Source: Candidatus Latescibacterota bacterium | GTDB taxonomy: Bacteria; Latescibacterota; CBDEFO01 | Assembly (NCBI GenBank): GCA_965248755.1 | Contig: OZ252149.1 | Location: forward strand, 3,840,001 to 3,904,000 | Length of the DNA: 64,000 nucleotides | Reading direction: 5' to 3' | Shown here: positions 8,884 through 14,457 of the stretch, piece after piece | Position numbering within the stretch: the first letter of the stretch is position 1 | Layout of the letters: every line of letters starts with the position of its first letter | Notes under the pieces: generated by a model | What the model was told of the DNA's origin: nothing | What the model saw: only the letters and a program-made list of their open reading frames with translations | Databases searched by the model: none | Translations under genes and position numbers: made by a program

Positions 8884-9773
8884 GATAAGGTCAACGGAGA
8901 TGGATATCTTTGATCAAATAGAGCCAGCAAGCAGATCGGTTCCACTTGCCGACAGGATGCGCCCCAGAAGTCTGGATGAGTTTGTGGGTCAGGGGCATAT
9001 TCTGGGACCGGGCAAGCCTCTAAGAACAATAATAGAGAAGGACCATCCCTATTCCATAGTCTTCTGGGGACCTCCCGGCACGGGGAAGACCACGCTTGCA
9101 AGAATAATTGCATCCACTACGGGCGCCAGGTTTGTAGGCTTCAGCGCGGTAGTCTCAGGTATACAGGAGGCCAAAAAAGTCATAGCCCAAGCGCGTCAGG
9201 AGAGGGAGGCTTACGGTGACAGGAGAACTATCCTCTTTGTGGACGAGATTCACCGTCTAAACAAGGCACAGCAGGACGCTTTTCTGCCTCACGTCGAAGA
9301 CGGCACGATAATGCTCATCGGCGCCACCACGGAAAATCCTTCCTTCGAGATCATCTCGGCGCTTCTATCCAGAACGAGGGTCTTCGTGCTGAACCCCCTC
9401 TCTGAGGAGGAACTCAAAACTGTAGTCCGAAACGCCCTTGGGGACGGGGGAAGGGGGCTCGGGACGATGAACGTCCACATGGGTCCGAAAGCCCTCGATT
9501 GTCTGATAAGCATTGCAAACGGAGACGCAAGGAAAGCCCTCAATACGCTTGAAATTTCCACTTCATCGGTTGAACCTGGCGGAGACGGCGTGCGGCGAGT
9601 CACGTTGGAAGTGGTCGAGGAGGTGGAGCAGAGGAGGATTCCGATCTACGACAAAGGTGGGGAGGAGCACTACAACGTAATCTCCGCCTTTCACAAGAGC
9701 CTGAGAGGCAGCGATCCAGACGCGGCCTTATACTGGCTTGTCCGCATGCTCTCTGCCGGGGAAGACCCTTTAT

Positions 9774-11399
9774 CCCCCATTCGCCATATTAGACCCGAAA
9801 AATGGTTGTCAAAGTCGCCAGAACATGTTATATTACAATAAATAAGACTCATAAATGGCGGATAAATATTGATCATCCAGAGGGTGAAAGAATGAAAGTA
9901 GGTTTTGATGGAGGAATAAAGCTTGAATTTCATGGTGCAAAGGTGACATCAAACGGTGGACTTCTTGCGTATCGTGACCTTGATTACGCACTGGGATTAT
10001 TTGATTCGGTATCAGCGGTTTTTACCGATAAACGCACAGGCCGTAATATCCAACATGATATATCTACTCTCCTGCGTCAATCGATATACAGCCGTCTTGC
10101 AGGATATGAAGATGTAAATGACGCCGAGCGATTATCCGTTGATCCCGTCATGCGAGCGATTACCGGAAAGAAGGACAAAGGCAGGCAAGCTGCCAGCTCC
10201 AACACGATAGGACGTTTTGAAACTGATATACTGACTCAGCATGACAATCTCAGAAACTTGTCAGATATCAATGGCAAGTGGGTTCAAAAAGCGATGAGTA
10301 AAACACAGCATCAACGAATCATTCTGGACATGGACAGTTCGGAGAGTCCGGTACATGGCCAGCAGGAAGGATCAGCTTACAACGGTCATTTCGGATGTAC
10401 CTGTTTTCATCCAGTGTTCTGCTTCAATCAGTTCGGGGATTGTGAAGGAGTCCTACTTCGCTCTGGTAATGTTCACAGTGCTGATCGTTGGAAGGAAGTT
10501 CTGGAACCGATCGTCAAGAGATACGAGAGCAAGAAGAATAGGAAATACTTTCGAGGCGATGCTGCATTCGCAAAGCCTGAGATTTATGATTATCTGGAGG
10601 GAAACGGCTATTTGTATGCCATTCGGTTTCCCGCAAATGAGATACTCTATGAAAAGATACGATACCTGCTGACTCGGCCAGTTGGACGACCGCCGAGGAA
10701 ACCGATTGTATCGTTATATGAATTTCAATATAAAGCGGCCAGTTGGGATCAATCGAGGCGAGTGGTCGCCAAGGTTGAATGGCACCAAGGGGAGTTATTC
10801 CCAAGAGTGGGATTTATCGTGACCAACATGAGCGCCAAGCCAGAAGGCGTGGTACACTTCTACAATGGCCGTGGCAGAGCTGAGCAGTGGATTAAGGAGG
10901 GCAAGTATGCTCTGAACTGGACCCGACTCTCATGCAAGCGTTTCGTCTCCAATCAGGTGAGGCTCTGGCTGTTTGTTCTGGCTTACAACTTGGGCAACTT
11001 CCTGCGACGTTTTGTTCTTCCGAAGAAAATCAAACACTGGTCACTACGCAGCCTCCTCGTGAAATTTATCAAAATCGGAGCGAAGATTGTCAGACACAGC
11101 GGATATATTACGTTTCAAATGGCTGAGGTTGGGATAGACAAGAGGTTATTTGCCGAAATATTATCCCGGATTGAACGATTGCGATGTTATTCTGTTTAAA
11201 CTGCCACATTTTTTTGTGAGTCGATGGAGAGGTGTCTCTAATTGGAGGATTTAAACACAAAGAAAGTGATAATTCAGAGGAAAATACTATTTTAATTGAA
11301 AAAAGTACTTGTTGAAAAATGTAAAAGTGGTAATATTAATTCAGAAACAAGAATGTATCGAAATATAATCCCTCATGAATGTGATATGGGGAATGTCGG
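9774..11399 (+). mobile_element. IS1380 family insertion sequence
   Basis: IRL CCCCCATTCGCCATATTAG (9774-9792) and IRR GTGATATGGGGAATGTCGG (11381-11399) match 14/19 as inverted repeats; encodes a DDE transposase. Confidence 0.88.
9892..11199 (+). CDS. IS1380 family transposase
   Basis: GYEDVNDA, LDMDSS, HGQQEG..YNGH, RGDAAF and YNGRG.AEQWIKEGK motifs; start uncertain (frame open from 9802). Confidence 0.92.
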   Translation: MKVGFDGGIKLEFHGAKVTSNGGLLAYRDLDYALGLFDSVSAVFTDKRTGRNIQHDISTLLRQSIYSRLAGYEDVNDAERLSVDPVMRAITGKKDKGRQAASSNTIGRFETDILTQHDNLRNLSDINGKWVQKAMSKTQHQRIILDMDSSESPVHGQQEGSAYNGHFGCTCFHPVFCFNQFGDCEGVLLRSGNVHSADRWKEVLEPIVKRYESKKNRKYFRGDAAFAKPEIYDYLEGNGYLYAIRFPANEILYEKIRYLLTRPVGRPPRKPIVSLYEFQYKAASWDQSRRVVAKVEWHQGELFPRVGFIVTNMSAKPEGVVHFYNGRGRAEQWIKEGKYALNWTRLSCKRFVSNQVRLWLFVLAYNLGNFLRRFVLPKKIKHWSLRSLLVKFIKIGAKIVRHSGYITFQMAEVGIDKRLFAEILSRIERLRCYSV

Positions 11400-11850
11400 T
11401 TGTACTCTATCTTGAATTTATAAAAACTCAAAAAAGTTTTGGATGTTTTGTCTCTCTCACGTATCTATAATACGACAGTGATATAAATTTCTCATAAAGT
11501 ATTTGTAAAATAGTTGACAAATACTAAATATATGTAAAATAAATAAGATATGTCATCAAAGAAAGCTTGACAAAGCTTGGGAATTGTACTATACGTATAA
11601 CAGTTACTAACATTATCCTGATTAAGCAAAGAACTTGATGACTTCTATGCGGTGTCTTTCACGAATTCTACGTAACAGCTATAGGTAGTCCTAATTTGTT
11701 TGCTGAAAAGATACTGCTATTAACTTAAAGAACTTTCATGCCGGAAGGGGAAATAGTTTCAGGCAAAGGAAAGGAGGGAGCGAAACATCAGAAAAGAGCT
11801 CCTGTATAGCAGTTGATGGCATTGTTCTTGTAAGGAGGTGATGAAACAAA

Positions 11851-12483
11851 ATGAGAGGACGAGCAGTGAAACCTTCCACGGTTCTGGCTACGATAACTTT
11901 CGTTATCTTGGGTATCGCTGCACAAATACACGCCCAGGTGTCCGCCCCAATTATCACTAATTACGTCAGAGCGGTTGCAGTCGAACCCGGAGGGAACGCG
12001 GTCTATGTGGGTTTATACATTGCAAGGCGTATGGTCCGATTCGCATCAGAGGACGTGGGAAACGCCGACCCGCGCTCTTTGACCATAGCGATAGCCGCCA
12101 AGGACGCCTTTGACTTTCTCGGCTCCCCCGAGGGTGAACTTGCGCTCGCTCAAGCGGCAGTCTACCTTGCCACAGCCCCTAAGAGCAATTCTGTATACTC
12201 CGCATATCAGATGGCCCAGGAAGACGTCCAAAAAAGTCCCTCTTTGCCCGTCCCTCTCCACATTCGCAACGCCCCTACGCAACTTATGAAAGAACTCGGA
12301 TACGGAAAGGGCTACAAATACGCCCACGATTCTGAGGAAAGCTACATAGCTCAGGAATATCTGCCCGACAATCTGGCAGGTGCCAAGTACTACTACCCCA
12401 CAGAACACGGATACGAAAAGAAGATAACGGAAATGATGAAATGGTGGGAGAGCCTTAAGCAGTCAGTAGACAGGAGTCAGTAG
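11851..12483 (+). CDS. Chimeric ORF: foreign signal-peptide N-terminus fused to RarA C-terminal domain
   Basis: AAGGAGG upstream; MRGRAVK + hydrophobic stretch + IHA-Q cleavage-like site, continuing in frame into YIARRMVRFASEDVG. Confidence 0.6.
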   Translation: MRGRAVKPSTVLATITFVILGIAAQIHAQVSAPIITNYVRAVAVEPGGNAVYVGLYIARRMVRFASEDVGNADPRSLTIAIAAKDAFDFLGSPEGELALAQAAVYLATAPKSNSVYSAYQMAQEDVQKSPSLPVPLHIRNAPTQLMKELGYGKGYKYAHDSEESYIAQEYLPDNLAGAKYYYPTEHGYEKKITEMMKWWESLKQSVDRSQ

Positions 12484-12505: not shown

Positions 12506-12663
12506 CTAGACAGGGCACCGCCTACCATCCCCCTTTCCTAAGAAGACATCAGTTTTTCCTCTTCAACTTTCGCAGGAAATTGTAGGGGCGAGGTCCCCTC
12601 GCGCCAAGGACTGGGTCTCCCAGCCCCTACGAAACGTTGCTTGGAACAGGAGCACGAGGTAAA

Positions 12664-13719
12664 TTGCTCGTATCCGAATTCGACTACTATCTGCCGCAAG
12701 GACTCATCGCTCAATATCCCTTAGTGGAGCGGGGCGAATCCAGACTGATCGTCGTGGACAGGCAGCGCAAAAGCATAGATCACAGGCACTTCAAGGATAT
12801 AGTGGACTACATAAATCCAGGTGATTGTCTCGTCATCAACGATATAAAGGTCCTCCTGGCTCGGCTGATAGGAAAGAGAGTTGTCACAGGGGGCAAGATC
12901 GAAATTCTACTTCTGAAGAGATTGTCGGAATCTCCGCCCACCTGGTCGGTACTGGCAAAGCCAGGAAGGTTAGCCAGATTGAACGCTCAATTTGCCTTCG
13001 GGGAGAAAGATAACGCTCTAACTGGGGAAATTGTGGAGATCCAGCCGGACGGAATCAGGACTATGCGATTTGAATGTACAGGATCGTTTGAGCAGAAATT
13101 AGCTCAAATTGGACAGGTCCCGCTCCCTCCTTACATAAAAAGATCCTCTCCTTATGATCAGGACTTTCAAAGATACCAGACCGTCTACGCAAAAGTGGAG
13201 GGAGCAATCGCTGCTCCTACTGCCGGACTGCACTTCACAGATCATATCCTCGATAGAATAAGAAACAAGGGCGCATCTGTAGTCCCCCTAACCCTGCACG
13301 TTGGACTCGGTACGTTTGCACCCGTGAAGACAGAAAGAGTGGAAGACCACACGATGCACGAAGAGAAGTACCAGGTCTTGGAAGACGCCGCAACTATTAT
13401 CAATCGTAGAAAGGGAAAGGTCTTCGCCGTGGGTACGACTGTGCTCAGGACGCTGGAGTCAACATCCCACTGTGACGGATCTGTCCACCCCGGATCAGGA
13501 GAGACGGACTTATTTATCTATCCGGGCTATAAGTTTAAGGTCGCAGACGCTCTCTTGACGAACTTTCACCTCCCCAAGACCACTCTCCTTATGCTAGTCT
13601 GCGCCTTTGGTGGTGCGACCACTCCGTGTGGAAAAGATCTTATTTTCAAGGCCTACGAGGAGGCTATAGAGGAAAGATATAGATTTTACTCCTACGGAGA
13701 CGCCATGCTGATCGTGTGA
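12664..13719 (+). CDS. queA: S-adenosylmethionine:tRNA ribosyltransferase-isomerase
   Basis: FDYYLP..LIAQ, PLPPYI, AAPTAGLHF, TNFHLP, YRFYSYGDAM. Confidence 0.96.
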   Translation: MLVSEFDYYLPQGLIAQYPLVERGESRLIVVDRQRKSIDHRHFKDIVDYINPGDCLVINDIKVLLARLIGKRVVTGGKIEILLLKRLSESPPTWSVLAKPGRLARLNAQFAFGEKDNALTGEIVEIQPDGIRTMRFECTGSFEQKLAQIGQVPLPPYIKRSSPYDQDFQRYQTVYAKVEGAIAAPTAGLHFTDHILDRIRNKGASVVPLTLHVGLGTFAPVKTERVEDHTMHEEKYQVLEDAATIINRRKGKVFAVGTTVLRTLESTSHCDGSVHPGSGETDLFIYPGYKFKVADALLTNFHLPKTTLLMLVCAFGGATTPCGKDLIFKAYEEAIEERYRFYSYGDAMLIV

Positions 13720-13722
13720 TCG

Positions 13723-14457
13723 CTACCCTGTCTTTCCGAAGTTGTCCAGAAAGATCACAAAGTCGGACAGTCCGATCTCTCCATTACCATCTAAATCAAA
13801 TTTAGGATCCCAATTAGCCGAATCAGTCGTTGTCCCGAAAGCATCCAAGAAGAGGACAAAATCTGAAAGACCTACTTCCTTGTTCCCGTCAAAATCTCCT
13901 ATAAGCGAAGTGGAAGAAGGCTGGTTGGCCTGCCCTAATGTCGGCTCAGCGACTACCCAGTCTGACGATTGATGGGGGAAGTTCCCATCTCCTACATACT
14001 GAATAGACTGTCCGGTCGGAACACTTGTGGGATCGATCGTATCTGAGGAACTCGCCCATTTGCCGCCGGACACCGCCTCGGACGTCCTCTTAAACAAGGG
14101 AGATCCCCACTTCACGTAATCGAGCACAGAAGAGGGGTTGGAAAAAGAGCCGTCCCGATAGTAAGCCACATCCTGGTTTGACAGGTCCAGCGTTGATGGA
14201 GCGTCGATTACCGCAAATCCCAGAGGAGGTACTACAGTACCGCTGGATATCGACCGATAGCTCTGATTCATACAGAGCCACTGTCCTCCGATGTCAGCGG
14301 AATTATCGGGATCGTCGTTGAAAAACTCTATCTTCTGCGTCCCATCCGAAGATTTAAAGAGCACCTCGTTGATTCTGACGCCCGCATTAAGTTCAGCCAA
14401 AAACGCGAACACAGCCAACACGGTGACAAATACTGACAGCAATCTTTTCATTCTCAT
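13723..14457 (-). CDS. Secreted lamin-tail-domain protein with C-terminal dockerin/EF-hand-like repeat
   Basis: Signal peptide, VRINEV...IEFFN, PTLG..N, and duplicated GDFDGN.EVGLSDF / DLDGNGEIGLSDF. Confidence 0.7.
   Translation of the reverse strand: MRMKRLLSVFVTVLAVFAFLAELNAGVRINEVLFKSSDGTQKIEFFNDDPDNSADIGGQWLCMNQSYRSISSGTVVPPLGFAVIDAPSTLDLSNQDVAYYRDGSFSNPSSVLDYVKWGSPLFKRTSEAVSGGKWASSSDTIDPTSVPTGQSIQYVGDGNFPHQSSDWVVAEPTLGQANQPSSTSLIGDFDGNKEVGLSDFVLFLDAFGTTTDSANWDPKFDLDGNGEIGLSDFVIFLDNFGKTG

Follow-up and report, generated by a model that had tools for sequence, protein, structure and literature searches.

An IS1247-like insertion sequence and adjacent host DNA in rarA of a Latescibacterota chromosome: evidence for one-ended capture

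The rarA locus and its interruption

We analysed a stretch of 64,000 nucleotides (the window, G000:C1:3840001-3904000) of a Candidatus Latescibacterota bacterium, in which an insertion sequence (IS) of the IS1380 family and 612 bp of further DNA interrupt the gene rarA. The source genome, G000, is a single 4.54-Mb contig, C1. Copies of the IS are named by their start coordinates on C1, and all other positions are those of the window unless C1 is given. Thirty relatives were searched, G001 being the only genome of the same genus among them. Sample runs were used as assembled contigs, which drop rare variants, from X1, X2, X5 and X7 (4 of the 24 listed; X8-X24, with small shares, were unused). 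X1 and X2 are possibly the source sample itself and are therefore not independent evidence. The locus is laid out as follows.

8900-9773, plus strand: 5' part of rarA (mgsA), broken after GEDPL; Pfam AAA, AAA_assoc_2 and positions 1-27 of MgsA_C
9769-9773, plus strand: left target-site duplication TTTAT, seen in the sequence; present once at the G001 empty site
9774-9789, plus strand: left inverted repeat (IRL), the common left end of 47 copies; 13/16 match to the right repeat, with the IS1247-end pattern
9892-11199, plus strand: intact IS1380-family DDE transposase of 435 aa (NF033539, E 3e-115; PF13701)
11340-11369, plus strand: predicted outward sigma-70-like consensus near the right end, a weak match (10/12)
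11384-11399, plus strand: true right inverted repeat (IRR), intact but apparently bypassed; the common right end of 47 copies, 17 of them closed by a duplication directly after it
11400-12011, plus strand: putatively captured 612 bp, the 5' end of a host BNR/Vps10-repeat gene (upstream region, ribosome-binding site, first 54 codons; paralogues in G000 and G001)
12000-12011, plus strand: predicted surrogate right end of the 612-bp unit, the best site in the 612 bp by a matrix from 17 other ends
12012-12016, plus strand: right target-site duplication TTTAT, seen in the sequence
12017-12483, plus strand: 3' part of rarA (Pfam MgsA_C; comparison with G001)

The first-pass annotation had rarA broken after GEDPL and resumed at YIARR. 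Excision of 9774-12016 yielded one open frame, 445 codons long when counted from residue 2 up to the stop, that reads GEDPLYIARR across the join. The two halves hold adjoining parts of Pfam MgsA_C, and this rarA is the only one in the assembly (a single tblastn match at that identity). In G001, the frame is uninterrupted and TTTAT is present once. The duplication flanks the whole of 9774-12011 and not the IS alone, as that annotation had read it. It had also pointed to the empty-site allele as a check, and this allele was found in G001 and in the X5 and X7 contigs of a relative of about 96% identity, where 9768 is joined to 12012 and the two sides overlap by 5 bases. The contigs of X1 and X2 gave no empty site, with the loss of rare variants noted above. 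The 12011/12012 junction, whose lack of spanning reads would have spoken for a misassembly, is spanned by an X1 contig matching 11372-14031 without any difference. At the two ends of the IS, contig coverage reached 26 bases into the element at IRL and 28 bases before the junction at IRR, below the 31 bases required for a junction to count as bridged. We conclude from these sequence comparisons that the rarA insertion is real and recent.

The IS1380-family element

The IS comprises 9774-11399 (1,626 bp). Its ends are set by 47 full copies of more than 99.8% identity in G000, and the predicted end of the IS proper at 11399 thus held. The terminal repeats of 16 bp are identical at 13 positions and show the CC...ATT pattern of IS1247 and ISEcp1. 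Elements of the IS1380 family range from about 1.5 to 2 kb and have short imperfect terminal inverted repeats and target duplications of 4-5 bp. The window IS has the length, the imperfect repeats, a 5-bp duplication and a single DDE transposase that scores 385 bits against the family model NF033539 (cut-off 180). In a comparison with 72,556 plasmid records, the transposase was 55% identical to IS1247/ISKpn23, 30% to IS1678 and 25.5% to ISEcp1, so that the element, placed by pairwise identity, belongs to an IS1247/ISKpn23-like subgroup. The first-pass annotation had assigned it to a subgroup different from that of ISEcp1, which is correct; the subgroup is, however, not new for gene capture, being that of IS1247 and ISKpn23. 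The outward sigma-70-like match is weak because the promoter scan returned 10 sites where 4.7 are expected by chance.

The captured 612 bp

Two further features lie within or across the 612 bp.

11498-11525, no strand assigned: inverted repeat with 12-bp arms, conserved in the alignment of paralogous upstream regions, a possible operator
11851-12483, plus strand: chimeric frame of 210 aa, in which the 54 captured codons run on in frame into the RarA C-terminal domain (MgsA_C, E 2.6e-59)

The segment had been called foreign and AT-rich. The first 300 bp have 29% GC, which agrees with the latter, but the remainder has 47%, close to the 49% of the genome. The N-terminus encoded by the 54 codons has five paralogues in G000 (37-85% identity) and homologues in G001, and the 612 bp is therefore, as judged from these similarities, host chromosomal DNA and not foreign. 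The full-length paralogues are proteins of 358-376 aa with Vps10 and BNR repeats (Pfam Sortilin-Vps10, BNR). By eye, the captured start resembles a signal peptide. The first five bases of the segment are likely the duplication from the donor insertion, and its terminal seven bases match both true IS ends at six positions, as had been noticed at first sight. The segment is not a fixed part of the IS, which would have spoken against capture: it is complete in three of the 47 copies, and one more has its first 189 bp.

No Rfam match was found in 11150-12050 up to E 1. A canonical promoter in the 612 bp was considered and rejected: the spacing from its two TTGACA hexamers to the following -10-like box is only 14-15 bases, and the promoter scan gave no plus-strand site. 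The upstream region of about 300-450 bp is conserved (window 11400-11850; G000:C1:835992, 992686, 2651068, 2655015 and 2658299). With its palindrome of 12-bp arms and the two TTGACA boxes at the same spacing, it precedes several different genes with signal-like starts and may mark a shared regulon or a lineage-specific promoter type. Members of the BNR/Vps10-repeat family of about 370 aa stand at G000:C1:836449, 1610060, 2645487, 2657941 and 3383497 and at L012:8790-9920; they have an SWGxIK-like tail, and a large partner gene comes after several of them. At syntenic places, G000 and G001 hold different paralogue types, which suggests cassette shuffling.

Census of the copies in G000

The census of 47 distinct full copies left out one older copy of 93% identity (587205), a partial second version of copy 7677 at the contig end, and shorter decayed fragments. 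Seventeen copies are simple insertions, with duplications of 5 bp in 15, 6 bp in one and 4 bp in one. Another 25 are extended: they carry 58-5,734 bp of captured DNA beyond IRR, each closed by its own 5-bp duplication (one is better read as 6 bp). For 24 units, the source of the captured DNA was found beside an IS copy elsewhere in the assembly, and the duplication starts at, or at most two bases from, the point where the unit leaves its source, for which the chance is about 0.004 per unit. The remaining unit is that of the 612 bp, for which only a 189-bp identical remnant was found.

By the bases directly after IRR, the extended copies fall into eight groups; in six of these, the bases equal the duplication at a simple copy still present. 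Nine donor copies persist with intact duplications. One end, 186 bp from IRR, is common to eight units, which may descend from one another, each jump still skipping the intact IRR. In total 36,480 bp have been captured, including several complete frames of 200-700 aa, and the IS with its cargo accounts for 2.5% of the genome. Of 40 target sites, about 30 fall inside long open frames.

Among the copies without a class, the right flank of 2982012 looks in G001 like the native locus of its group (40 candidates scored). Neither of the left flanks compared gave a match in G001 (40 candidates scored per search), and copy 3782900 was likewise without placement. At G000:C1:2703516 and 2711395, two copies of another repeat, 8 kb apart, have each been entered at an identical base by a different extended unit, which suggests a target hot spot. 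A second copy of the same IS lies inside the cargo of the extended unit at G000:C1:3746991-3753026. At G000:C1:3959959, a comparison with L013 shows the IS in place of about 500 bp that G001 has, probably the result of an IS-adjacent deletion. Other repeats (about 470, 640, 1,270 and 2,200 bp) occur in many near-identical copies, for instance at G000:C1:1276000-1283000 and 2708000-2720000; the genome is in a broad mobile-element expansion.

A terminal motif at the surrogate ends

The 25 units use 18 distinct ends, 58-5,734 bp from IRR, which are variable in position and share a significant terminal motif. T at -6 was found in 17 of the 18 (p 1.5e-9), and in all of them if the 398-bp end is placed where the donor was left (397 bp, 6-bp duplication). 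A or T at -7 was present in 18/18, G at -1 in 10 and G at -2 in 10. Between -8 and -19 there was no convincing match to IRR (best p 0.02, uncorrected). In leave-one-out scoring, the median rank of the true ends was within the best 0.6% of flank positions (range 0.02-8.3%), and the matrix gave 6.3 for the true IRR, 8.1 for the window end and 10.4 for the 186-bp end. In the window IS, IS1247 and ISEcp1, both repeats likewise have AT at positions 6-7 counted from the terminus.

Probable serial capture from the rarA unit

Two units elsewhere in G000 repeat the window unit together with rarA-side DNA, and their right ends fall downstream of the insertion.

12354-12365, plus strand: second surrogate end, used by the putative daughter G000:C1:1891550 (minus strand; 966 bp captured; duplication CTTTA); an X2 contig breaks at 12366
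12637-13719, plus strand: queA (Pfam Queuosine_synth), copied whole in the second putative daughter; two identical copies in G000
14020-14031, plus strand: third surrogate end, used by the putative daughter G000:C1:3237578 (2,632 bp captured; duplication TCAAT); X1 and X2 contigs end at 14031

The direction from the window to these two units follows from the 5' half of rarA, which is present only in the window. By this sequence criterion, the window unit likely served as the donor of both longer units. Around the breaks at 12366 and 14031, the X2 depths were about 32, 18.5 and 8.8, as for three, two and one copies, contig depth being a poor measure of copy number. Altogether four second-generation events were found: from the window with 966 bp and with 2,632 bp, from 2334675 with 1,177 bp and from 890965 with 274 bp, the last two starting from 186-bp units.

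The 3237578 unit carries the fusion frame and the whole queA and sits in a gene for a dinB-like Y-family polymerase. At G000:C1:3237578-3241840 (L017), one IS lineage has thus broken a second DNA-damage-tolerance gene after rarA. Its 2,632 bp end inside a 244-aa frame (window 13723-14457, minus strand) that has a dockerin-like C-terminus by eye and no Pfam match.

The donor of the 612 bp

It had been proposed that BLASTN would find the donor beside another IS copy. Searches of G000 with blastn and tblastn gave 100% identity only in the three IS-linked units, and G001 held only homologues of 85-93%. What was found beside an IS copy is a remnant: copy 834366 has the same IS junction followed by 189 identical bases, at which all other paralogues covering them differ. 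To its left lies a fliI-like gene that is truncated at the 5' end and marks the border of a flagellar cluster; the syntenic place in G001 holds a paralogue of the captured type. We infer that the donor likely stood at 834366 and was lost by recombination between the repeated upstream regions and by an IS-adjacent deletion. Alternatively, 834366 may be a daughter that recombined with a native upstream region, and the IS-internal variants do not decide between the two readings. The flagellar cluster itself (G000:C1:810909-834365, L019 in part) ends at this IS copy, in the fliI-like gene. A fliF gene was not found in G000 or G001, and motility is probably being lost.

Explanation and alternatives

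We propose that an IS1247-like element entered rarA together with 612 bp of adjacent DNA by bypassing its true right end and cutting at a look-alike, and that this unit was likely the donor of two longer ones. To this explanation we assign a probability of about 0.93. One-ended capture is strongly supported, since in 25 units the IS and the captured DNA lie together between the two copies of a 5-bp duplication; the mechanism of the first-pass annotation, one-ended transposition to a surrogate right end with an AT-rich 5-bp duplication, is thus encountered again throughout G000. In the sequence of events, the IS would first have inserted upstream of a BNR-repeat gene, then moved with 612 bp into rarA, and from there moved twice more, with 966 and 2,632 bp. 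The transposase would be anchored at IRL, and the right cut would need only about seven terminal bases (A/T at -7, T at -6 and a G-rich terminus). The original BNR donor gene would later have been lost in the deletion at G000:C1:834366. Since donors stay in place, each event duplicates host DNA. Donor retention is compatible with replicative transposition or with cut-and-paste from a sister chromosome and is no proof of the former.

Several points weigh against this explanation. Its support consists of sequence comparison and assembled contigs. The exact donor of the 612 bp is absent from the assembly, and copy 834366, which lacks its own duplication, shows 33 differences in the 262 positions after the shared 189 bases and runs into a different paralogue. 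Five of the 47 copies lack a duplication and could not be assigned to a class. Single-base variants at IS positions 121 and 854 conflict with the genealogy of the flanks, and several donors and daughters differ; such IS-internal variants were rejected as a genealogical guide, being contradicted by the flanks. At the variant position 10627 of the window, the X1 contigs carry the majority base, and polishing errors or gene conversion among copies are therefore likely. Several long units passed 100-400 (up to 409) better-scoring sites before ending, so the motif is permissive and not sufficient. A surrogate end of ISEcp1 printed in a portion of PMC12116815 lacks T at -6.

Three other explanations were weighed. 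That near-identical repeats, of which there are 47, led the assembler to misjoin flanks and to duplicate neighbouring DNA is extremely improbable. The conflicting variants and the five copies without duplications would agree with such an artefact, as would the ends of C1, which overlap by 7.2 kb (G000:C1:1-7206 = 4533530-4540735), an untrimmed circular assembly that duplicates part of one IS copy. Misjoins would, however, not give 25 separate 5-bp duplications at the points of divergence, nor a common end motif. The X1 and X2 contigs, which were built separately, contain the 12011/12012 junction and show branches at both 12366 and 14031, and no reciprocal flanks for copy 834366 exist among the 47 copies. 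We also regard as very improbable an insertion of the IS on its own, with the 612 bp added through homologous recombination between IS copies or as a second, non-autonomous element. Rearrangement beside IS copies does occur in this genome, as seen at 3959959 and at 834366 with its truncated fliI-like gene and the missing fliF. But recombination inside the IS would swap the whole right flank and would not return to rarA at TTTAT after 612 bp; no duplication follows the true IRR, and the exact restoration of rarA and the 24 parallel units contradict it. The 612 bp has no terminal repeats that would mark a second element, and it is the 5' end of a host gene.

The insertion might instead have been kept as useful, the captured upstream region driving an exported RarA C-terminal fusion or raising queA expression. 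The fusion is in frame, with a ribosome-binding site and a signal-like start, its junction is present in three copies and queA in two, and the X1 and X2 contigs showed no empty site, within the limit given for such contigs. Against this, the same strand and frame are expected by chance in about 1 of 6 cases, the many target sites in long open frames fit relaxed selection, the promoter scan found no plus-strand site in the 612 bp, and an exported oligomerisation domain would have no evident use. We consider this explanation unlikely.

A broader claim can be attached to one-ended capture by this element, and we hold it only tentatively, as somewhat less probable than its opposite. Bypass of its own right end would be the usual outcome (25 of 42 resolved insertions), and the element would be a serial gene-duplication engine that reads about seven terminal bases, among them an invariant A/T-T pair, and not a subterminal repeat. 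Its donors would survive. If true, the process would resemble the 3' transduction by eukaryotic retroelements, each unit seeding longer ones, with 36.5 kb of host DNA including whole genes copied. It would also give a general rule for predicting what IS1247-type elements capture.

Comparison with known systems

Taken alone, the rarA unit is an unremarkable example of a mechanism already known. That ISEcp1 transposes in a one-ended manner, using imperfect right ends and making 5-bp duplications, is established (PMC12589106 and PMC12116815). ISPme1 and IS1247a form transposable modules (TMos) in Paracoccus (in part of PMC3281130; reviewed in PMC9330008). A section of PMC5737581 describes four chromosomal copies of an IS1380 element in Sphingobium with adjacent genes from pSHV3; in the plasmid record, the pSHV3 element of Sphingobium herbicidovorans MH is annotated as IS1247. 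Capture by ISKpn23 is discussed in PMC13423793, where members of the IS1247/ISKpn23 group are described as having moved resistance genes out of environmental bacteria. The first-pass annotation had inferred the same capture mechanism in an environmental lineage with a different IS1380 subgroup; such capture is already published for IS1247, ISKpn23 and ISPme1 (PMC3281130, PMC9330008, PMC5737581, PMC13423793), environmental Paracoccus and Sphingobium included. Like a TMo, the units described here consist of one IS copy and 3'-adjacent DNA within one target duplication (25 units), with variable right ends resembling the repeat. A genome-wide census of IS1380 capture or a consensus of surrogate ends was not found in the literature, which is weak evidence of absence, as the search covered few subscription papers.

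The ISEcp1 (ISEc9) units with blaCTX-M and blaCMY are likewise one-ended, with imperfect right ends, a 5-bp duplication, and gain or loss of cargo in later jumps (parts of PMC12589106 and PMC12116815). They differ in the transposase, 25.5% identical to ours, and in the end: a terminal G is proposed as crucial in a passage of PMC12116815, whereas 10 of our 18 ends have it and 17-18 have T at -6. The IS1380 of Acetobacter pasteurianus resembles the window IS in its 74 copies and many truncated genes, and differs in that the relevant passages of PMC2761278 make no mention of captured flanks.

The ISPme1 TMos of Paracoccus methylutens DM12 are similar in their description: as summarised in a section of PMC9330008, one IS copy moves 3'-adjacent DNA of variable length via a misread look-alike, an outward promoter is present and donors are apparently retained. 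In the window IS, an outward promoter is predicted from the 10/12 consensus match. The TMos were caught in trap plasmids, whereas our units were read from a natural chromosome. The same section leaves pathway and donor fate open for ISEcp1 and calls them apparently replicative for ISPme1.

The closest relatives are IS1247 and ISKpn23, with 55% transposase identity over 99% of the length and similar terminal repeats. In IS1247, about 1,671 bp were found between the repeats, compared with 1,626 bp for the window IS, and it makes a 5-bp duplication (PMC3281130, Table 2). As a single copy it moves 3'-adjacent DNA, as the chromosomal copies with pSHV3 genes show (PMC5737581). The window IS is distinct from both in its 47 copies in one chromosome, 25 of them extended, with 18 distinct ends and four second-generation captures. 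Its cargo is ordinary host DNA and theirs resistance or catabolic genes. A single burst of this IS has reshaped an uncultured bacterium, the IS with its cargo occupying 2.5% of the genome and rarA and a dinB-like gene being broken. The genome records 25 natural captures made by a single unselected element, and in it donors stand beside their daughters and granddaughters. Nine donors persist intact, and the 18 distinct ends provide a testable rule of end choice for the IS1247/ISKpn23 group. Taken together, the mechanism is known, the element is new, and its natural record is unusually rich.

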